Shown here: positions 8,957-21,279 of the stretch, piece after piece
Layout: each line of letters opens with the position of its first letter
How positions within the stretch are numbered: position 1 is the first letter of the stretch
Assembly (NCBI GenBank): GCA_016700375.1
Contig: CP065016.1
Span: 1,020,001-1,052,000 of the forward strand
DNA length: 32,000 bases
Source: Candidatus Saccharimonadota bacterium
GTDB taxonomy: Bacteria > Patescibacteriota > Saccharimonadia > Saccharimonadales > UBA4665
Reading direction: 5' to 3'
Notes under the pieces: model-generated
Told to the model about the DNA's origin: nothing
Seen by the model: the letters and a program-made list of their open reading frames with translations, nothing else
The model's database searches: none
Translations under genes and position numbers: made by a program

Positions 8957-9052
8957 GGTGAGGATAGTCAGTGACTGTCGGCAAGGGAATGTTCCGGTGC
9001 AAACTTGTTTGCAACAGTGAACTTCCGGGGCCGCAGGATGCGGCTAGGCCTC
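8957..9052 (+). ncRNA. Structured repeat module, copy A0 (tandem, immediately upstream of the tRNA-like gene)
   Basis: GGTGAGGA, hairpin ATAGTC-AGT-GACTGT, CGGCAAGGGAA, hairpin TGCAAAC-TTG-GTTTGCA, GTGAACTTCCGGGG, hairpin GCCGCA-GGA-TGCGGC, TAGGCCTC. This is the same order of elements as copies A, C and D. Confidence 0.5.
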
Positions 9053-9059
9053 TTGGATA

Positions 9060-9223
9060 GGGATTGTAGCTCAGTTGGCGTTGGTCGCAGCATTCACATT
9101 GACGCAAGTCGGGGTGAGACCCGCCAGTGGCGGGTCGCAAGGGAAACTTCCGGGTCAGGCTGTGCCTGACGCCGTGAAGTTCCGAGCCCGCCGAAGGTGG
9201 GTCGAGCCCCTCCAATCCCACCA
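9060..9223 (+). ncRNA. tRNA-like gene (164 nt) carrying an 86-nt copy of the structured module (copy A, about 9116-9201) at the T-arm
   Basis: The 5' end is GGGATTG-TA-GCTC-AGTTGG and the 3' end is TCGAGC-CCCTC-CAATCCC-A-CCA. These form a 7-bp acceptor stem with encoded CCA. The flanks of the insert (...GTCGGGGT | TCGAGCCCC...) would join into a canonical T-arm. No canonical anticodon arm could be folded. A hairpin with a T-run follows at 9226-9260. Confidence 0.55.
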
Positions 9224-9282
9224 AACGTATCTCAAAGATACTGACCAATTAATTTTTCAATATATAAGAAAAGAAGGCACCT

Positions 9283-9987
9283 ATGGACGAACTCAAGAAA
9301 AAACTAGCACTTTCACAAAACGACAAGCTCAATGGACTTCGCGCGGCCGTGCTTGGCGCAAACGATGGCGTTGTTAGTACCGCAGGGCTCATCTTTGGTG
9401 TGGCAGGTGCTACCAACAACAAGGGTGCAATATTTACGGCCGGCCTCGCTGGACTAATTGCCGGGGCTATTAGCATGGCGGTCGGCGAGTACATATCGGT
9501 TAGCACGCAGCGTGACACCGAGCGTGCATTCATAGCGCGCGAAAAGAAACTGTTGGAAAAAGATCCGGCTGGTCAGCTGGAAGACTTGGCAGCGTTTTAT
9601 GAAGCAAAGGGCGTTTCACGCAAAACCGCGCTTCAGTTTGCGCGCGAACTGAGCGCCGATGACCCGGTAAAAGCGCACCTTGAGGCCGAACTGAAGCTTG
9701 ACGAAAACGACCTCACTAACCCCATGACAGCTGGTATCGCCTCGTTCTTTTCGTTTGGGCTGGGGGCGCTCATACCGCTCACGGCGGCGGTTGCCTCGCC
9801 CGATAGTACCCGCATAAAGACCACACTGCTGGCAGTCATTGCGGGGCTGTTCCTCACCGGTTACTACAGCGCAAAATTTGGTGGCGCCAACAAACGTGCC
9901 GCCGTACTTCGCGTACTGGTCGGCGGTATAACGGCTATGGCGGTGACATACGCCATCGGCCGCGCTTTTGGTACTGCAATAAGCTAG
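9283..9987 (+). CDS. VIT1/CCC1-family iron/manganese transporter
   Basis: LRAAVLGANDGVVSTAGLIFGVAGAT and GEYISVSTQRD motifs, plus C-terminal TM helices typical of the VIT family. Confidence 0.85.
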   Translation: MDELKKKLALSQNDKLNGLRAAVLGANDGVVSTAGLIFGVAGATNNKGAIFTAGLAGLIAGAISMAVGEYISVSTQRDTERAFIAREKKLLEKDPAGQLEDLAAFYEAKGVSRKTALQFARELSADDPVKAHLEAELKLDENDLTNPMTAGIASFFSFGLGALIPLTAAVASPDSTRIKTTLLAVIAGLFLTGYYSAKFGGANKRAAVLRVLVGGITAMAVTYAIGRAFGTAIS

Positions 9988-10017
9988 AGCTTTTCTTCGC
10001 CTAGCTATCGCTAGACA

Positions 10018-10051
10018 AGTAAAAACCTCAGCTTTCACTGAGGTTTTTACT
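10018..10051. terminator. Bidirectional hairpin terminator between the VIT gene and tRNA-Phe
   Basis: AAAAACCTCAG-ctttca-CTGAGGTTTTT. A/T runs on both sides, and it abuts the CCA end of tRNA-Phe. Confidence 0.75.
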
Positions 10052-10127
10052 TGGTGGCTCCTCCCAGACTCGAACTGGGGACACAAGGCTCTTCAGGCCT
10101 CTGCTCTACCAACTGAGCTAAAGAGCC
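10052..10127 (-). tRNA. tRNA-Phe (GAA)
   Basis: The reverse complement folds as GGCTCTT-TA-GCTC-AGTTGGTA-GAGC-A-GAGGC-CTGAAGA-GCCTT-GTGTC-CCCAG-TTCGAGT-CTGGG-AGGAGCC-A-CCA. Confidence 0.93.
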
Positions 10128-10271
10128 ACACTAACAGGCTATTGTAGCCTAACAGAGGTGTAAACTCAAGCCGTGCAAATGCGCCAGCTTACCGTAACTA
10201 TTTTGTAAGATAAAACACACTTATTCCTGAGCAATAGGTTTAAACTATAAGCACCATCTAAAGGAGGGTTT

Positions 10272-11105
10272 ATGAGAAAGTATCTTACAACAGGGCTAGT
10301 CGTGCTTGGATTTCTTGCGGCGGCAGCTTTTTCGACCAGTAGCGTAAGCGCACTAACTACCGTAAACGGCTGCTCTTTCGACGATAGTATCGCTGGCGTC
10401 TGGAAACTGACTGCTGACTGTACAAGTACAGCACAAATAAATGTGCCATCAAACACAGTAGTGAAGGGCGGTGGGCATACCATATCTCCAAATTTCACAA
10501 AGACAGACAATGATAATAATGCCGCACTCGGTGTTGTTGGAATGAATAGCGTTACCGTTCGTAACCTTACCATCGATGGTACAGCGGGTGTTAAGTTACA
10601 CGGTATTAATGTTTTTCAATCATCCGGCGTGAAACTAGTGAGTGTAATACTTAAGAACAATAGCCGAAACGGACTGGTCGTCAATGGCTCCGAAGTCACG
10701 GTGCGTAATCTAACGACTGCTGCAAACGTATGGGGCAGTGTGGATGTGGACTTAGGTTCGGGCGTTACCATGCCAGCCAGTCTAACAGTGAAGGGCATAA
10801 GTAATCATTCGGACGTTGCCCACATATATGTAGATGACAGCACAAAGGCTGTTAGTGTCAATGACGTCCGAGGGCAGTACATGGTGTCACATCCTGGCAT
10901 CCAGCCAAATGATAAACTTTACACTCTCAAGAAAGTCGTTACTACGAAAAATCAGTGCAAAAACGGTGGCTGGCAAAGGCTTATGACGGTCGACCACTGG
11001 GGCTTCCAAAATCAAGGGAAGTGCGTATCGTATGTTGAGCACGTTGTGGACCACCACGGTCATCACGGTGATCGTGAACACGAGCATGACGACATGGATG
11101 ACTAG
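10272..11105 (+). CDS. Secreted right-handed beta-helix repeat protein with His/Asp-rich C-terminal tail
   Basis: Signal peptide MRKYLTTGLVVLGFLAAAAFSTSSVSA. Repeated V.V.NLTI/G..V..S..V segments typical of parallel beta-helix repeats. The tail is HVVDHHGHHGDREHEHDDMDD. Confidence 0.55.
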   Translation: MRKYLTTGLVVLGFLAAAAFSTSSVSALTTVNGCSFDDSIAGVWKLTADCTSTAQINVPSNTVVKGGGHTISPNFTKTDNDNNAALGVVGMNSVTVRNLTIDGTAGVKLHGINVFQSSGVKLVSVILKNNSRNGLVVNGSEVTVRNLTTAANVWGSVDVDLGSGVTMPASLTVKGISNHSDVAHIYVDDSTKAVSVNDVRGQYMVSHPGIQPNDKLYTLKKVVTTKNQCKNGGWQRLMTVDHWGFQNQGKCVSYVEHVVDHHGHHGDREHEHDDMDD

Positions 11106-11152
11106 TAAGTAATATGCGCTAGGATGTAAAGCGGTCATTAGGCCGCTTTACT

Positions 11153-20659: not shown

Positions 20660-20689
20660 AGGTTATAAACGGGTTGAAATCCTAGCAAA

Positions 20690-20695
20690 ATTATA
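20690..20695 (-). promoter_or_regulatory. Candidate -10 box (TATAAT) for the helicase/OLD operon
   Basis: TATAAT lies on the minus strand 31 nt upstream of the ATG at 20659. The -35 is weak. Not validated. Confidence 0.3.
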
Positions 20696-20837
20696 CAACA
20701 GTCGTCCTACGTTAGCGAGGAGGTTATAAGAAGTTAATTGGTCTTACGAGGTTTATCCTCGCACAGGGGTGGTTAATGTGAATTTTCGTCTGGGACGGCA
20801 AAATAACAGGGGCGGGTTTAACCTGGGATATTTTTTA

Positions 20838-20984
20838 TGGTAAGGGGACTCTACCTACCTTCGGCAGGCTCGGAACTTCACGGCGTCAAGCATAGCTTGA
20901 CCCGGAAGATTCCCTTGCAAAGCACCACTGGTGCTTCTCAGCCTGGCCTCTACTCGGCCAGGCGTTAGAATCTCTCACGCCAGA
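20838..20984 (-). ncRNA. Structured repeat module, copy D, between the tRNA-Gly terminator and the helicase promoter region
   Basis: The minus strand reads TCTGGCGTGAGAGATTCTAACGCC..GAGGCCAGGC | TGAGAAGCACCAGTGGTGCTTTGCAAGGGAATCTTCCGGGTCAAGCTATGCTTGACGCCGTGAAGTTCCGAGCCTGCCGAAGGTAGG | TAGAGTCCCCTTACCA. It is near-collinear with copy A and shows compensatory stem changes. Confidence 0.55.
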
Positions 20985-20988
20985 CCAT

Positions 20989-21020
20989 ATAAAAAGCCTC
21001 ACTTTCGTGAGACTCTTTAC
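20989..21020 (-). terminator. Hairpin terminator directly after tRNA-Gly
   Basis: AAAGAGTCTCAC-GAAA-GTGAGGCTTTTT on the minus strand, starting 2 nt after the CCA. Confidence 0.7.
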
Positions 21021-21021
21021 A

Positions 21022-21098
21022 TGGTGCGGGTCAGGGGACTCTAACCCCTGGCCTCGTCCTTGGCAAGGACGCGCTCTAAACAACTGAGCTAGACCCGC
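21022..21098 (-). tRNA. tRNA-Gly (GCC)
   Basis: The reverse complement folds as GCGGGTC-TA-GCTC-AGTTGTTTA-GAGC-G-CGTCC-TTGCCAA-GGACG-AGGCC-AGGGG-TTAGAGT-CCCCT-GACCCGC-A-CCA. Confidence 0.93.
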
Positions 21099-21149
21099 AT
21101 ATGTGGTAAATATATTGTAAAGTACGGTGTGGTATTTGCGAAGCGCGCA

Positions 21150-21279
21150 CTTGGCCTGGCAAGGAACGGTCACATTCCGCGACCCCGTCGCCACATCTTT
21201 GCAAACTAGTTTGCAAGAGTGGGCTCCCTTGCGTACCGCCACTGGCGGTCCTCACTCTAAACAACTGAGCTAGACCCGC
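21150..21279 (-). pseudogene. tRNA-Gly pseudogene interrupted by a partial copy (E) of the structured module
   Basis: The first 25 nt, GCGGGTCTAGCTCAGTTGTTTAGAG, are identical to tRNA-Gly. Then comes TGAGGACCGCCAGTGGCGGTACGCAAGGGA plus hairpin TTGCAAAC-TAG-TTTGCAA. Then CGTTCCTTGCCA-GGCCAAG, which is the tRNA-Gly anticodon arm and variable region with a 7-nt deletion. There is no T-arm or acceptor 3' end. Confidence 0.6.

Follow-up and report, generated by a model that had tools for sequence, protein, structure and literature searches.

A family of covarying RNA modules of about 87 nucleotides on tRNA-derived scaffolds in Saccharibacteria

Six module copies and their hosts in the window

The stretch of DNA analyzed here (the window) comprises 32,000 nucleotides of contig CP065016.1 from a Candidatus Saccharimonadota bacterium (assembly GCA_016700375.1, positions 1,020,001 to 1,052,000 of the forward strand). 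It contains six copies, named A0, A, B, C, D and E, of a module that is built from three hairpins (H1, H2 and H3) and is associated with sequences derived from transfer RNA (tRNA) genes. The module represents an undescribed family of RNA modules of about 87 bases, with well over 100 copies in the genome loci that were fetched for comparison. An initial annotation of the window had recognized the six copies. All of them are present, as judged by pattern matches and by covariance model scores, and the H1, H2 and H3 stem sequences quoted in that annotation proved correct on reading of the six regions. A pattern that describes the 5' half of the module (TGARR-N5-CRGTGR-N6-GCAAGG) occurs at exactly six sites in the window, 8959 (+), 9115 (+), 13679 (-), 14922 (-), 20940 (-) and 21254 (-), versus 0.07 sites expected from shuffled sequences. 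The covariance model R1 was built from a seed of 80 distinct copies, four of which come from the window, with copies C and B left outside the seed. R1 assigns 94.8 bits to A, 90.7 bits to E, 90.0 bits to D, 89.2 bits to A0, 87.6 bits to C and 39.7 bits to B. It detects no further match in the 32 kilobases, and its antisense scores do not exceed 17 bits.

The two copies on the forward strand occupy different hosts. Copy A0 (8959–9045, +) is closed by a host stem that consists of AAGAGG (8953–8958) and CCTCTT (9049–9054). It occupies an equivalent position in L008, L055, L078 and L038 (L-numbers designate the fetched genome loci, which derive from a scan of one genome per species). The non-coding sequence of about 330 nucleotides on the 5' side of A0 (8630–8958) is kept in L008, L055 and L078 and partly in L038. 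Because this sequence contains a GCCGAG...GGC segment that resembles the D-arm of a class II tRNA, as well as a TTCGGA/TCCGAA hairpin, the host of A0 may also be tRNA-derived. Copy A (9115–9202, +) resides in the T-loop of a tRNA-Val(CAC)-derived scaffold (9060–9223, +) that was identified by reading (GGGATTG...CAATCCC-A-CCA) and whose D-arm and anticodon stem have decayed. Neither ARAGORN nor the Rfam tRNA model recognizes this scaffold as a tRNA. L078 and L055 contain an intact tRNA-Val(CAC) at the same site with the same downstream flank, and an 81-nucleotide gap in the alignment with L078 coincides exactly with copy A.

The other four copies are located on the reverse strand. An intact tRNA-Gly(GCC) (21022–21098, -), identified by both ARAGORN and Rfam (67.5 bits), is accompanied by unit E on its upstream side and by unit D on its downstream side. 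Unit E (21150–21279, -) is composed of an exact copy of tRNA-Gly positions 1–25 (21255–21279), module E (21168–21254) and an anticodon arm that has become a closed hairpin (TTCCTTGCCAGGCCAAG), and this layout recurs in L024, L042, L043 and L115. A promoter-like site for tRNA-Gly is found in the tail of unit E (21142–21114). Unit D (20838–20987, -) directly follows tRNA-Gly and its terminator, contains module D at 20853–20940 and has TAGAGTCCCCTTACCA as its last segment. Unit D shares its layout with unit C (14817–14963, -), in which a terminator-adjacent TGG and an antisense-like T-arm hairpin are combined with a copy of the variable loop and T-stem, module C (14836–14922) and the closing segment TAGAGTCCCCTCACCCGCAC, a copy of the tRNA-Gly 3' end. 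A terminator-like site lies near unit C at 14990–14972. Unit B (13490–13727, -) consists of TGG, an antisense-like tRNA-Gly T-arm hairpin and a long module variant (core 13597–13679). This variant is a divergent, longer subtype (GCAAGGCCGGA...) that is shared with L078, L103 and L060, and the unit located immediately behind tRNA-Gly in L078 matches unit B at 97% identity.

None of these hosts qualifies as a tRNA gene. When a tRNA is defined by a cloverleaf of at least 29 bits with the Rfam tRNA model (RF00005) or by an ARAGORN call, the window contains four true tRNAs, and units A, E, D, C and B show no tRNA match even at E-values up to 10. ARAGORN detects no transfer-messenger RNA (tmRNA) in the window, and Rfam returns no tmRNA, YrlA or T-box match.

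Two types of promoter-like sequence were observed around the units. A strong promoter-like site (TTGCAA, 17 nucleotides, TATAAT) is located at 21468–21440, approximately 160 nucleotides upstream of unit E on the reverse strand, and the stretch between them (21282–21470, -) is non-coding. In addition, a CCCCTGT sequence that is followed 5–10 nucleotides on by a TATAAT-like box is found upstream of tRNAs and cargo genes at 20760–20800 (-) and 14770–14795 (-). The same combination is present in L043, L094 and L103 and may be a lineage-specific promoter element.

A covarying three-hairpin fold

The module proper spans 86–88 nucleotides, from UGAGA through the end of H3. H1 is a hairpin whose loop and closing pair (C-AGU-G) are invariant, H2 is a long hairpin that carries conserved bulges, and H3, also a hairpin, combines a GAA-type triloop with a conserved G·U pair. 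The junction bases UGA, GCAAGG and CGGG are invariant, and H1, H2 and H3 would form a four-way junction together with the closing stem of the host. The C-AGU-G loop resembles the pseudo-triloop of the iron-responsive element, a likeness that we take only as a lead.

These boundaries differ in part from those proposed at the outset. The initial annotation had counted T(A/C)GAG(T/C)CCC as the final element of the module, but this sequence is actually the remainder of the T-loop of the host tRNA and the 3' strand of its T-stem. Conserved single-stranded linkers had also been proposed. This description applies to the CG(R)G junction but not to the rest of 'GTGAAGTTCCGAGCC', since GAAGTTCC forms the 3' side of the outer H2 stem, with GGAA(N)CTTC as its pairing partner. 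H3, which had been described for A, D and A0, is present in these copies and in E as well (GGTCGCG-GAA-TGTGACC), and the H3 of copy C is imperfect.

The covariation of the stems, which had been read from the six copies, is borne out by the larger alignment A2 (80 copies, 93 columns), onto which the three-helix structure was drawn (H1, columns 4–11/15–22; H2, 28–46/50–71; H3, 73–80/85–92). Standard pairs occupy 96.4% of the cells, compared with 74.6% in shuffled alignments and 26–41% when the 3' partners are slid. Changes on both sides are found at 28 of the 34 pairs, and compensatory cells number 539 versus 143 after shuffling, with none of 500 shuffles attaining the observed value. Across all helices, G·U combinations far outnumber A·C combinations (155 versus 19), and the G·U pair of H3 (columns 78:87) is retained in 68 of the 80 copies. 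Given this G·U excess and the R1 scores of about 90 bits in the sense orientation against 17 bits or less in the antisense orientation, the fold is assigned to the sense strand. The module thus has a strongly covarying fold on the transcribed-sense strand. As for the earlier designation of the module as a functional RNA, its structure, its covariation and its membership of a family hold, and we infer the functional part from conservation.

Distribution, tRNA context and mobility of the family

The initial annotation could not match the module to a known RNA family, and database searches yielded the same result. Searches of the window against Rfam 15, at the gathering threshold and at E-values up to 10, recovered only the four true tRNAs, none of which overlaps a module. 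Rfam searches of sub-regions and of 18 loci recovered only tRNAs and one lysM-TM7 RNA. A full-text search of the literature on Saccharibacteria and Patescibacteria, tRNA introns, T-loop insertions and TM7 RNA motifs retrieved no description of the element, and the motif paper of Weinberg (2017) mentions TM7 for lysM-TM7 only.

The family extends well beyond the window. A stricter pattern that was scanned over one genome per species identified at least 120 loci. Among the 120 matches listed, about 105 belong to metagenome-assembled genomes (MAGs) of Candidatus Saccharibacteria, Saccharimonadales or Patescibacteria, and seven loci of other phyla, in which H1 is not complementary, represent chance matches. 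A scan of viral contigs gave four matches, all with a non-complementary H1 and likewise attributable to chance, and blastn against phage and plasmid collections gave no match. Among the matches listed, the family is therefore nearly confined to Saccharibacteria (TM7). R1 detects 123 copies in 100 of the fetched loci, often as arrays. The window is 93–97% identical (blastn) to two Saccharimonadales MAGs, L055 and L078, which places it in a Saccharibacteria genome. A MAG that is labelled Rickettsiales (JBIKUW01; L013, L019, L033, L041, L077, L117 and L120) harbors a repeat of about 200 nucleotides that shares only the 5' half of the motif, in the order TGAGG, a hairpin with an AGT loop, ACGCAAGG and a long hairpin. 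Rfam contains no match to this repeat, which may be related to the module only distantly or may have arisen by convergence.

The modules are consistently embedded in or adjacent to tRNA or tRNA-like sequences, as the six window copies had suggested, and they occur in stereotyped layouts. Of the 95 modules with a tRNA within 400 nucleotides, 93 lie on the same strand as the tRNA and 2 on the opposite strand. The base that precedes the module is G in 83 of 84 cases. The insertion points map to tRNA gene positions 18, 25–26, 38–39, 47 and 52–54/64–65, which correspond to the D, anticodon, variable and T loops, and more than 30 isoacceptor types are involved. The module-bearing scaffold is usually a truncated or disabled duplicate of a neighboring intact tRNA gene.

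Two layouts predominate. In the downstream layout (45 cases), an intact tRNA and a terminator hairpin are followed by TGG, by the tRNA 3' half as a diverged reverse-complement copy, by the variable loop and the 5' T-stem strand in direct copy, by the module and by a direct copy of the remaining T-loop, T-stem, acceptor strand and CCA, often with a second terminator. Units D, C and B adopt this layout behind tRNA-Gly. In the upstream layout (37 cases), which includes unit E, a tRNA copy that runs from position 1 to the insertion point and is 85–100% identical to the real gene precedes the module, and about 10 nucleotides that continue the tRNA, a short spacer and the intact tRNA follow. In the spacer, a TATAAT-like box and a T-loop copy in inverted orientation (TTGAAC) are often present. 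Near 29 of the 44 tRNAs with a downstream module, the tRNA 3' half recurs as an inverted copy (at least 10 of 12 identities), compared with 21 of the 89 tRNAs without one. Several of these exceptions have the same scaffold with a different insert.

In a third layout, the module is located within a full-length tRNA sequence, as in the decayed tRNA-Val(CAC) that hosts copy A, in the tRNA-Lys(UUU) of L118 and in a tRNA-Pro of L096. Apart from the module in its T-loop, the tRNA-Lys(UUU) of L118 (1640–1800) is perfect, and the 8-kilobase locus contains no intact copy. If this is the sole gene for tRNA-Lys(UUU), the module must be removed or tolerated. In L096 (6621–6757), the ARAGORN call of tRNA-Pro takes the CGGGG junction and H3 of the module as the 5' strand of the acceptor stem and the D-arm. 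The 3' third of the module resembles the 5' end of tRNA-Pro, a possible clue to its origin. Modules also occur in non-tRNA hairpins, namely in A0 and in L017, L047 and L085. In the latter three loci (L017 1630–1846, L047 2300–2560 and L085 7200–7450), the module lies within a hairpin of a conserved non-tRNA sequence (GGGTGACGTTCGGCGGGG, module, CGCCCC...GGGGCGGACCGGACGGCAGGACCCG) that has no Rfam match.

The family exhibits signs of past or present mobility, and its resident copies are conserved above their flanks. Nested modules are found in L012, L032, L082 and L084, and in a single tRNA-Glu scaffold of L103 (7560–8000) the D, anticodon and T loops each contain a module, three in total. Sequence similarity among modules does not follow tRNA identity: the same tRNA identity is shared by only 4 of 42 nearest-neighbor modules, and in the window copies A and D are mutual nearest relatives. 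The window and L078 differ at four of the six modules, because A, E, D and C are missing at the matching L078 sites. L078 lacks unit E, and its tRNA-Gly directly adjoins unit B, which indicates that D and C lie within a 7.2-kilobase block that is missing from L078. The scaffold of copy A is deemed old because L008, although more distant, contains the same scaffold with the odd D-arm. With respect to conservation, A0 is 97.7% identical between the window and L008, versus 77–85% for its flanks and 77% for the VIT1 gene. Modules at the position of E beside tRNA-Gly in other species are 86% identical, versus 48–72% for their flanks, and their differences include compensatory stem changes.

The block (13768–20990, -) is bounded by module units and contains D, an SF1 helicase/restriction endonuclease gene, an OLD-type nuclease gene, C, a DUF6157 gene and a DUF1761 gene, as assigned by Pfam; its absence from L078 was established by blastn. 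The SF1 helicase carries an MTES_1575 nuclease domain, and the OLD-type protein is an ATPase/TOPRIM protein. At the end of each sub-block, a GCACCA sequence precedes a terminator and a module unit, and this arrangement suggests that tRNA-Gly is a hotspot of insertion. A Pfam scan of ten open reading frames (ORFs) of the window, two of which have no Pfam match, revealed no integrase domain. The first genes downstream of modules are diverse (VIT1, LemA, MurB-like, GuaA, FolD, EF-G, ComEC-like and others), and an exact sequence look-up of the VIT1 protein gave no record. A regulator or leader of one gene class was dropped as an explanation, because these downstream genes are unrelated housekeeping genes. 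Clustering of all ORFs in the loci returned housekeeping families only and no recurrent partner or mobilizing enzyme.

Possible roles and origins of the module

What could be the role of a structured module in the loops of tRNA duplicates? With moderate confidence, we propose that the modules constitute an undescribed family of RNA modules of about 87 nucleotides on tRNA-derived scaffolds that act as RNA and have spread by insertion into hairpin loops. We infer transcription, the RNA-level role and the mode of spread from the sequence. The module would be transcribed with or like tRNA genes, and the tRNA scaffold would provide a promoter, processing signals and stability. The module itself is probably a docking domain for a protein or for another RNA. 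Following insertion into hairpin loops, the surviving copies would be those in redundant tRNA fragments. Some scaffolds look like direct-inverted-direct duplications, and this arrangement, which is centered on the terminator, resembles the tandem inversion duplications that arise by snap-back at palindromes. Saccharibacteria are abundant, barely cultured episymbionts with genomes of about 1 megabase and very little spare DNA. The module is unlikely to be junk, because these genomes are compact and well over 100 covarying copies are always grafted into tRNA-derived scaffolds. Furthermore, the conservation of resident copies above their flanks in such compact genomes favors the view that the RNA fold has a role at the sites where it resides.

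Several observations weigh against this proposal. Expression and the RNA ends are predicted from sequence, and the ORF clustering found no partner protein or mobilizing enzyme near the modules. The strand-specific pairing is also compatible with hairpins of single-stranded DNA, and the differences between close relatives could equally result from deletion between direct repeats rather than from new insertion. Only 79 of the 133 tRNA genes in the fetched loci are accompanied by a unit. This speaks against a universal role of the module in tRNA biology, and a global role at every tRNA was dropped on this ground. Finally, the layout of tRNA, terminator, inverted T-arm, insert and 3'-end copy also holds other inserts, with an AGT-loop hairpin in L022 (6640–6800), L058 (6450–6600), L101 (2120–2260) and L102 (downstream of tRNA-Leu 360–444, -) and with TGC in L115 (downstream of tRNA-Leu 3429–3514, -). 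The scaffold, rather than the module, may thus be the primary and more general feature.

The modules could alternatively derive from a non-autonomous DNA transposon that resembles miniature inverted-repeat or palindrome-associated transposable elements (MITEs or PATEs) and targets hairpin tips, with the hairpins serving as single-stranded DNA recognition structures for a transposase encoded elsewhere. We consider this origin unlikely, although it would account for the many dispersed copies of 87 nucleotides without an ORF, for the many target sites, all of which are hairpin loops after G, and for the nested copies and the lack of clustering by tRNA identity. The orientation bias could reflect the replication strand, with which tRNA genes are usually co-oriented. 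Correia, ERIC, BOX and REPIN elements have terminal inverted repeats or are simple palindromes, and they insert at sequence motifs in either orientation. The module resembles such structured MITEs and REP-type elements in that it is small, ORF-less, multi-copy, foldable and intergenic and often lies beside terminators, but it differs from them in its co-orientation with tRNA sequence, in its location inside tRNA-derived hairpin loops and in the G·U pairs that it keeps. Inspection by eye, without a formal repeat search, showed neither inverted repeats at its ends (TGAGA... and ...GTGACC) nor a fixed-length duplication in the flanks. H1 and H3 are dissimilar to each other. The inverted T-arm copies beside the units differ from one host tRNA to another. 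No transposase is enriched nearby, and the phage and plasmid collections hold no match. In addition, the conserved G·U pair and the identity of in-place copies above that of their flanks argue for selection in place.

A rather unlikely explanation is that the module is a self-propagating RNA element of a kind undescribed in bacteria. Such an element would enter exposed tRNA loops after G by RNA-level cleavage and ligation and would be copied back to the genome. It would be tolerated only in spare tRNA fragments and later be put to use as a tRNA-scaffolded RNA domain in reduced episymbionts.

A role of the units as attachment sites or landing pads for genomic islands that target tRNA genes is quite improbable. 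In such a role, the module would belong to the end of the island, and units would exchange cargo cassettes. Integrative elements that target tRNA genes use sublocations in the anticodon loop, the T-loop and the 3' end. The units resemble them in that the tRNA 3' end recurs as direct repeats at the 3' ends of the units, as attachment (att) sites do, in that partial copies of it flank inserted DNA, and in that the window holds cargo between units: the block between D, C and B contains defense-type genes, is absent from L078 and is divided into parts that each end in GCACCA, a terminator and a unit. However, most units are cargo-free, and no integrase is found in the scanned ORFs of the window or among the enriched neighbors. 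The module also interrupts the T-loop region and thus sits inside the would-be crossover region; in the case of T-loop-targeting integrases, that region would have to match between both att sites. Moreover, the covariation with G·U pairs indicates RNA.

A bacterial tRNA intron that is removed to yield a working tRNA is very unlikely. Mobile non-canonical tRNA introns of archaea (Thermoproteales) occur as families at many tRNA positions; each is delimited by a bulge-helix-bulge motif and excised precisely from the only copy of the gene. The module is similar to them in that related short sequences in sense orientation occupy multiple loops of many tRNA genes, a pattern that implies spread from gene to gene. 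The otherwise perfect tRNA-Lys(UUU) of L118, with no intact copy within 8 kilobases, and the full-length tRNA-Pro of L096 with the module in its D-loop would also fit an intron. In contrast to the archaeal introns, the module occurs in a bacterium, its hosts are truncated or disabled duplicates that mostly lie 30–90 nucleotides from an intact copy of the same tRNA, and its removal does not restore a tRNA. In most hosts the tRNA is missing its 5' or 3' part, and in hosts with a D-loop insertion the anticodon loop has been turned into a closed hairpin. A cleanly excisable intron was rejected because, relative to the adjacent intact tRNA, 0–3 host bases are replaced at the junctions, and removal of the module leaves a T-loop without U55 or a T-stem that is one G short. 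Inspection of A2 and the flanks also rejected a bulge-helix-bulge, because the junction places a 3-nucleotide UGA opposite a 4-nucleotide RAGU across the host stem rather than forming two staggered 3-nucleotide bulges with a 4-base-pair helix between them. Group I introns in the anticodon loops of bacterial tRNAs, such as cyanobacterial tRNA-Leu(UAA), measure at least 200 nucleotides, contain a P1–P9 core and occupy the anticodon loop only. The module resembles them as a structured RNA that interrupts a bacterial tRNA gene and whose fold is kept by covariation. It differs in its length of 87 nucleotides, its three hairpins and its four kinds of host loop. A group I or II intron was rejected because 86–88 nucleotides with three hairpins fall far short of a core (P3–P8 or domains I–VI) and about 200 nucleotides, and no Rfam intron match was obtained at E-values up to 10.

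Least probable is an attenuator-like switch on tRNA maturation, in which the module would act as a sensor whose state decides whether an 'anti-T-arm' pairs with the module-fused decoy T-arm or with the real tRNA: both layouts hold an inverted copy of the uninterrupted T-arm beside the module-bearing copy, long complementary stretches that include G·U pairs exist (for example, 11 base pairs in L006 and 16 in L009, from a search whose scoring favored G·U and which was not used as evidence) and the invariant junction bases resemble a ligand pocket, but in this G·U-biased search the helix between the antisense T-arm segment and the 3'-end copy is strong in some units and weak in many, the downstream unit lies beyond the terminator of the tRNA, a unit is missing from many tRNAs, and inverted copies and perfected hairpins can arise neutrally through template switching at palindromes.

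Other classes of RNA were also considered and rejected. A riboswitch or cis-regulatory leader does not fit, because there is no consistent class of downstream gene and no Rfam riboswitch match. A guide RNA of a mobile element (IS110 bridge RNA or IS200/605 omega RNA) was discarded because no gene family recurs as a neighbor and Rfam shows no HEARO or related match. Self-cleaving ribozymes (hammerhead, twister, hatchet, pistol, hepatitis delta virus-like and others) were discarded because Rfam gives no match at E-values up to 10. The K-turn, T-loop motif, box C/D, hammerhead core and splice-site-like GUGAGA were considered, and none fits the covariation pattern. The module is similar to tmRNA, YrlA/Y RNA-like RNAs and T-box leaders in joining tRNA-like elements to another structured domain, but it is unlike them in that dozens of copies are tied to many isoacceptors, rather than one gene per genome. 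A further analogy to a module that would act as RNA on a tRNA-derived scaffold is an artificial one. Ponchon and Dardel reportedly engineered a tRNA scaffold for expressing RNA aptamers, in which the insert is placed in the anticodon arm of a complete tRNA. Both constructions place a foreign structured RNA in a tRNA loop, and the engineered chimera is made and stabilized as a tRNA. Unlike the engineered insert, the module is natural, resides mostly in the T-loop and is carried on incomplete tRNAs.

For genome annotation, the units matter because they break tRNA gene callers and seem to mark hotspots of defense-gene insertion. Some Saccharibacteria can now be cultured and transformed, which makes the module a concrete and testable target. 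A mobile module would amount to a new way for an element to colonize tRNA genes while sparing the host, and it would account for the partial tRNA duplicates of these genomes. A module that serves as a functional domain would point to unknown RNA biology in the candidate phyla radiation and provide a natural counterpart of the engineered tRNA scaffold.

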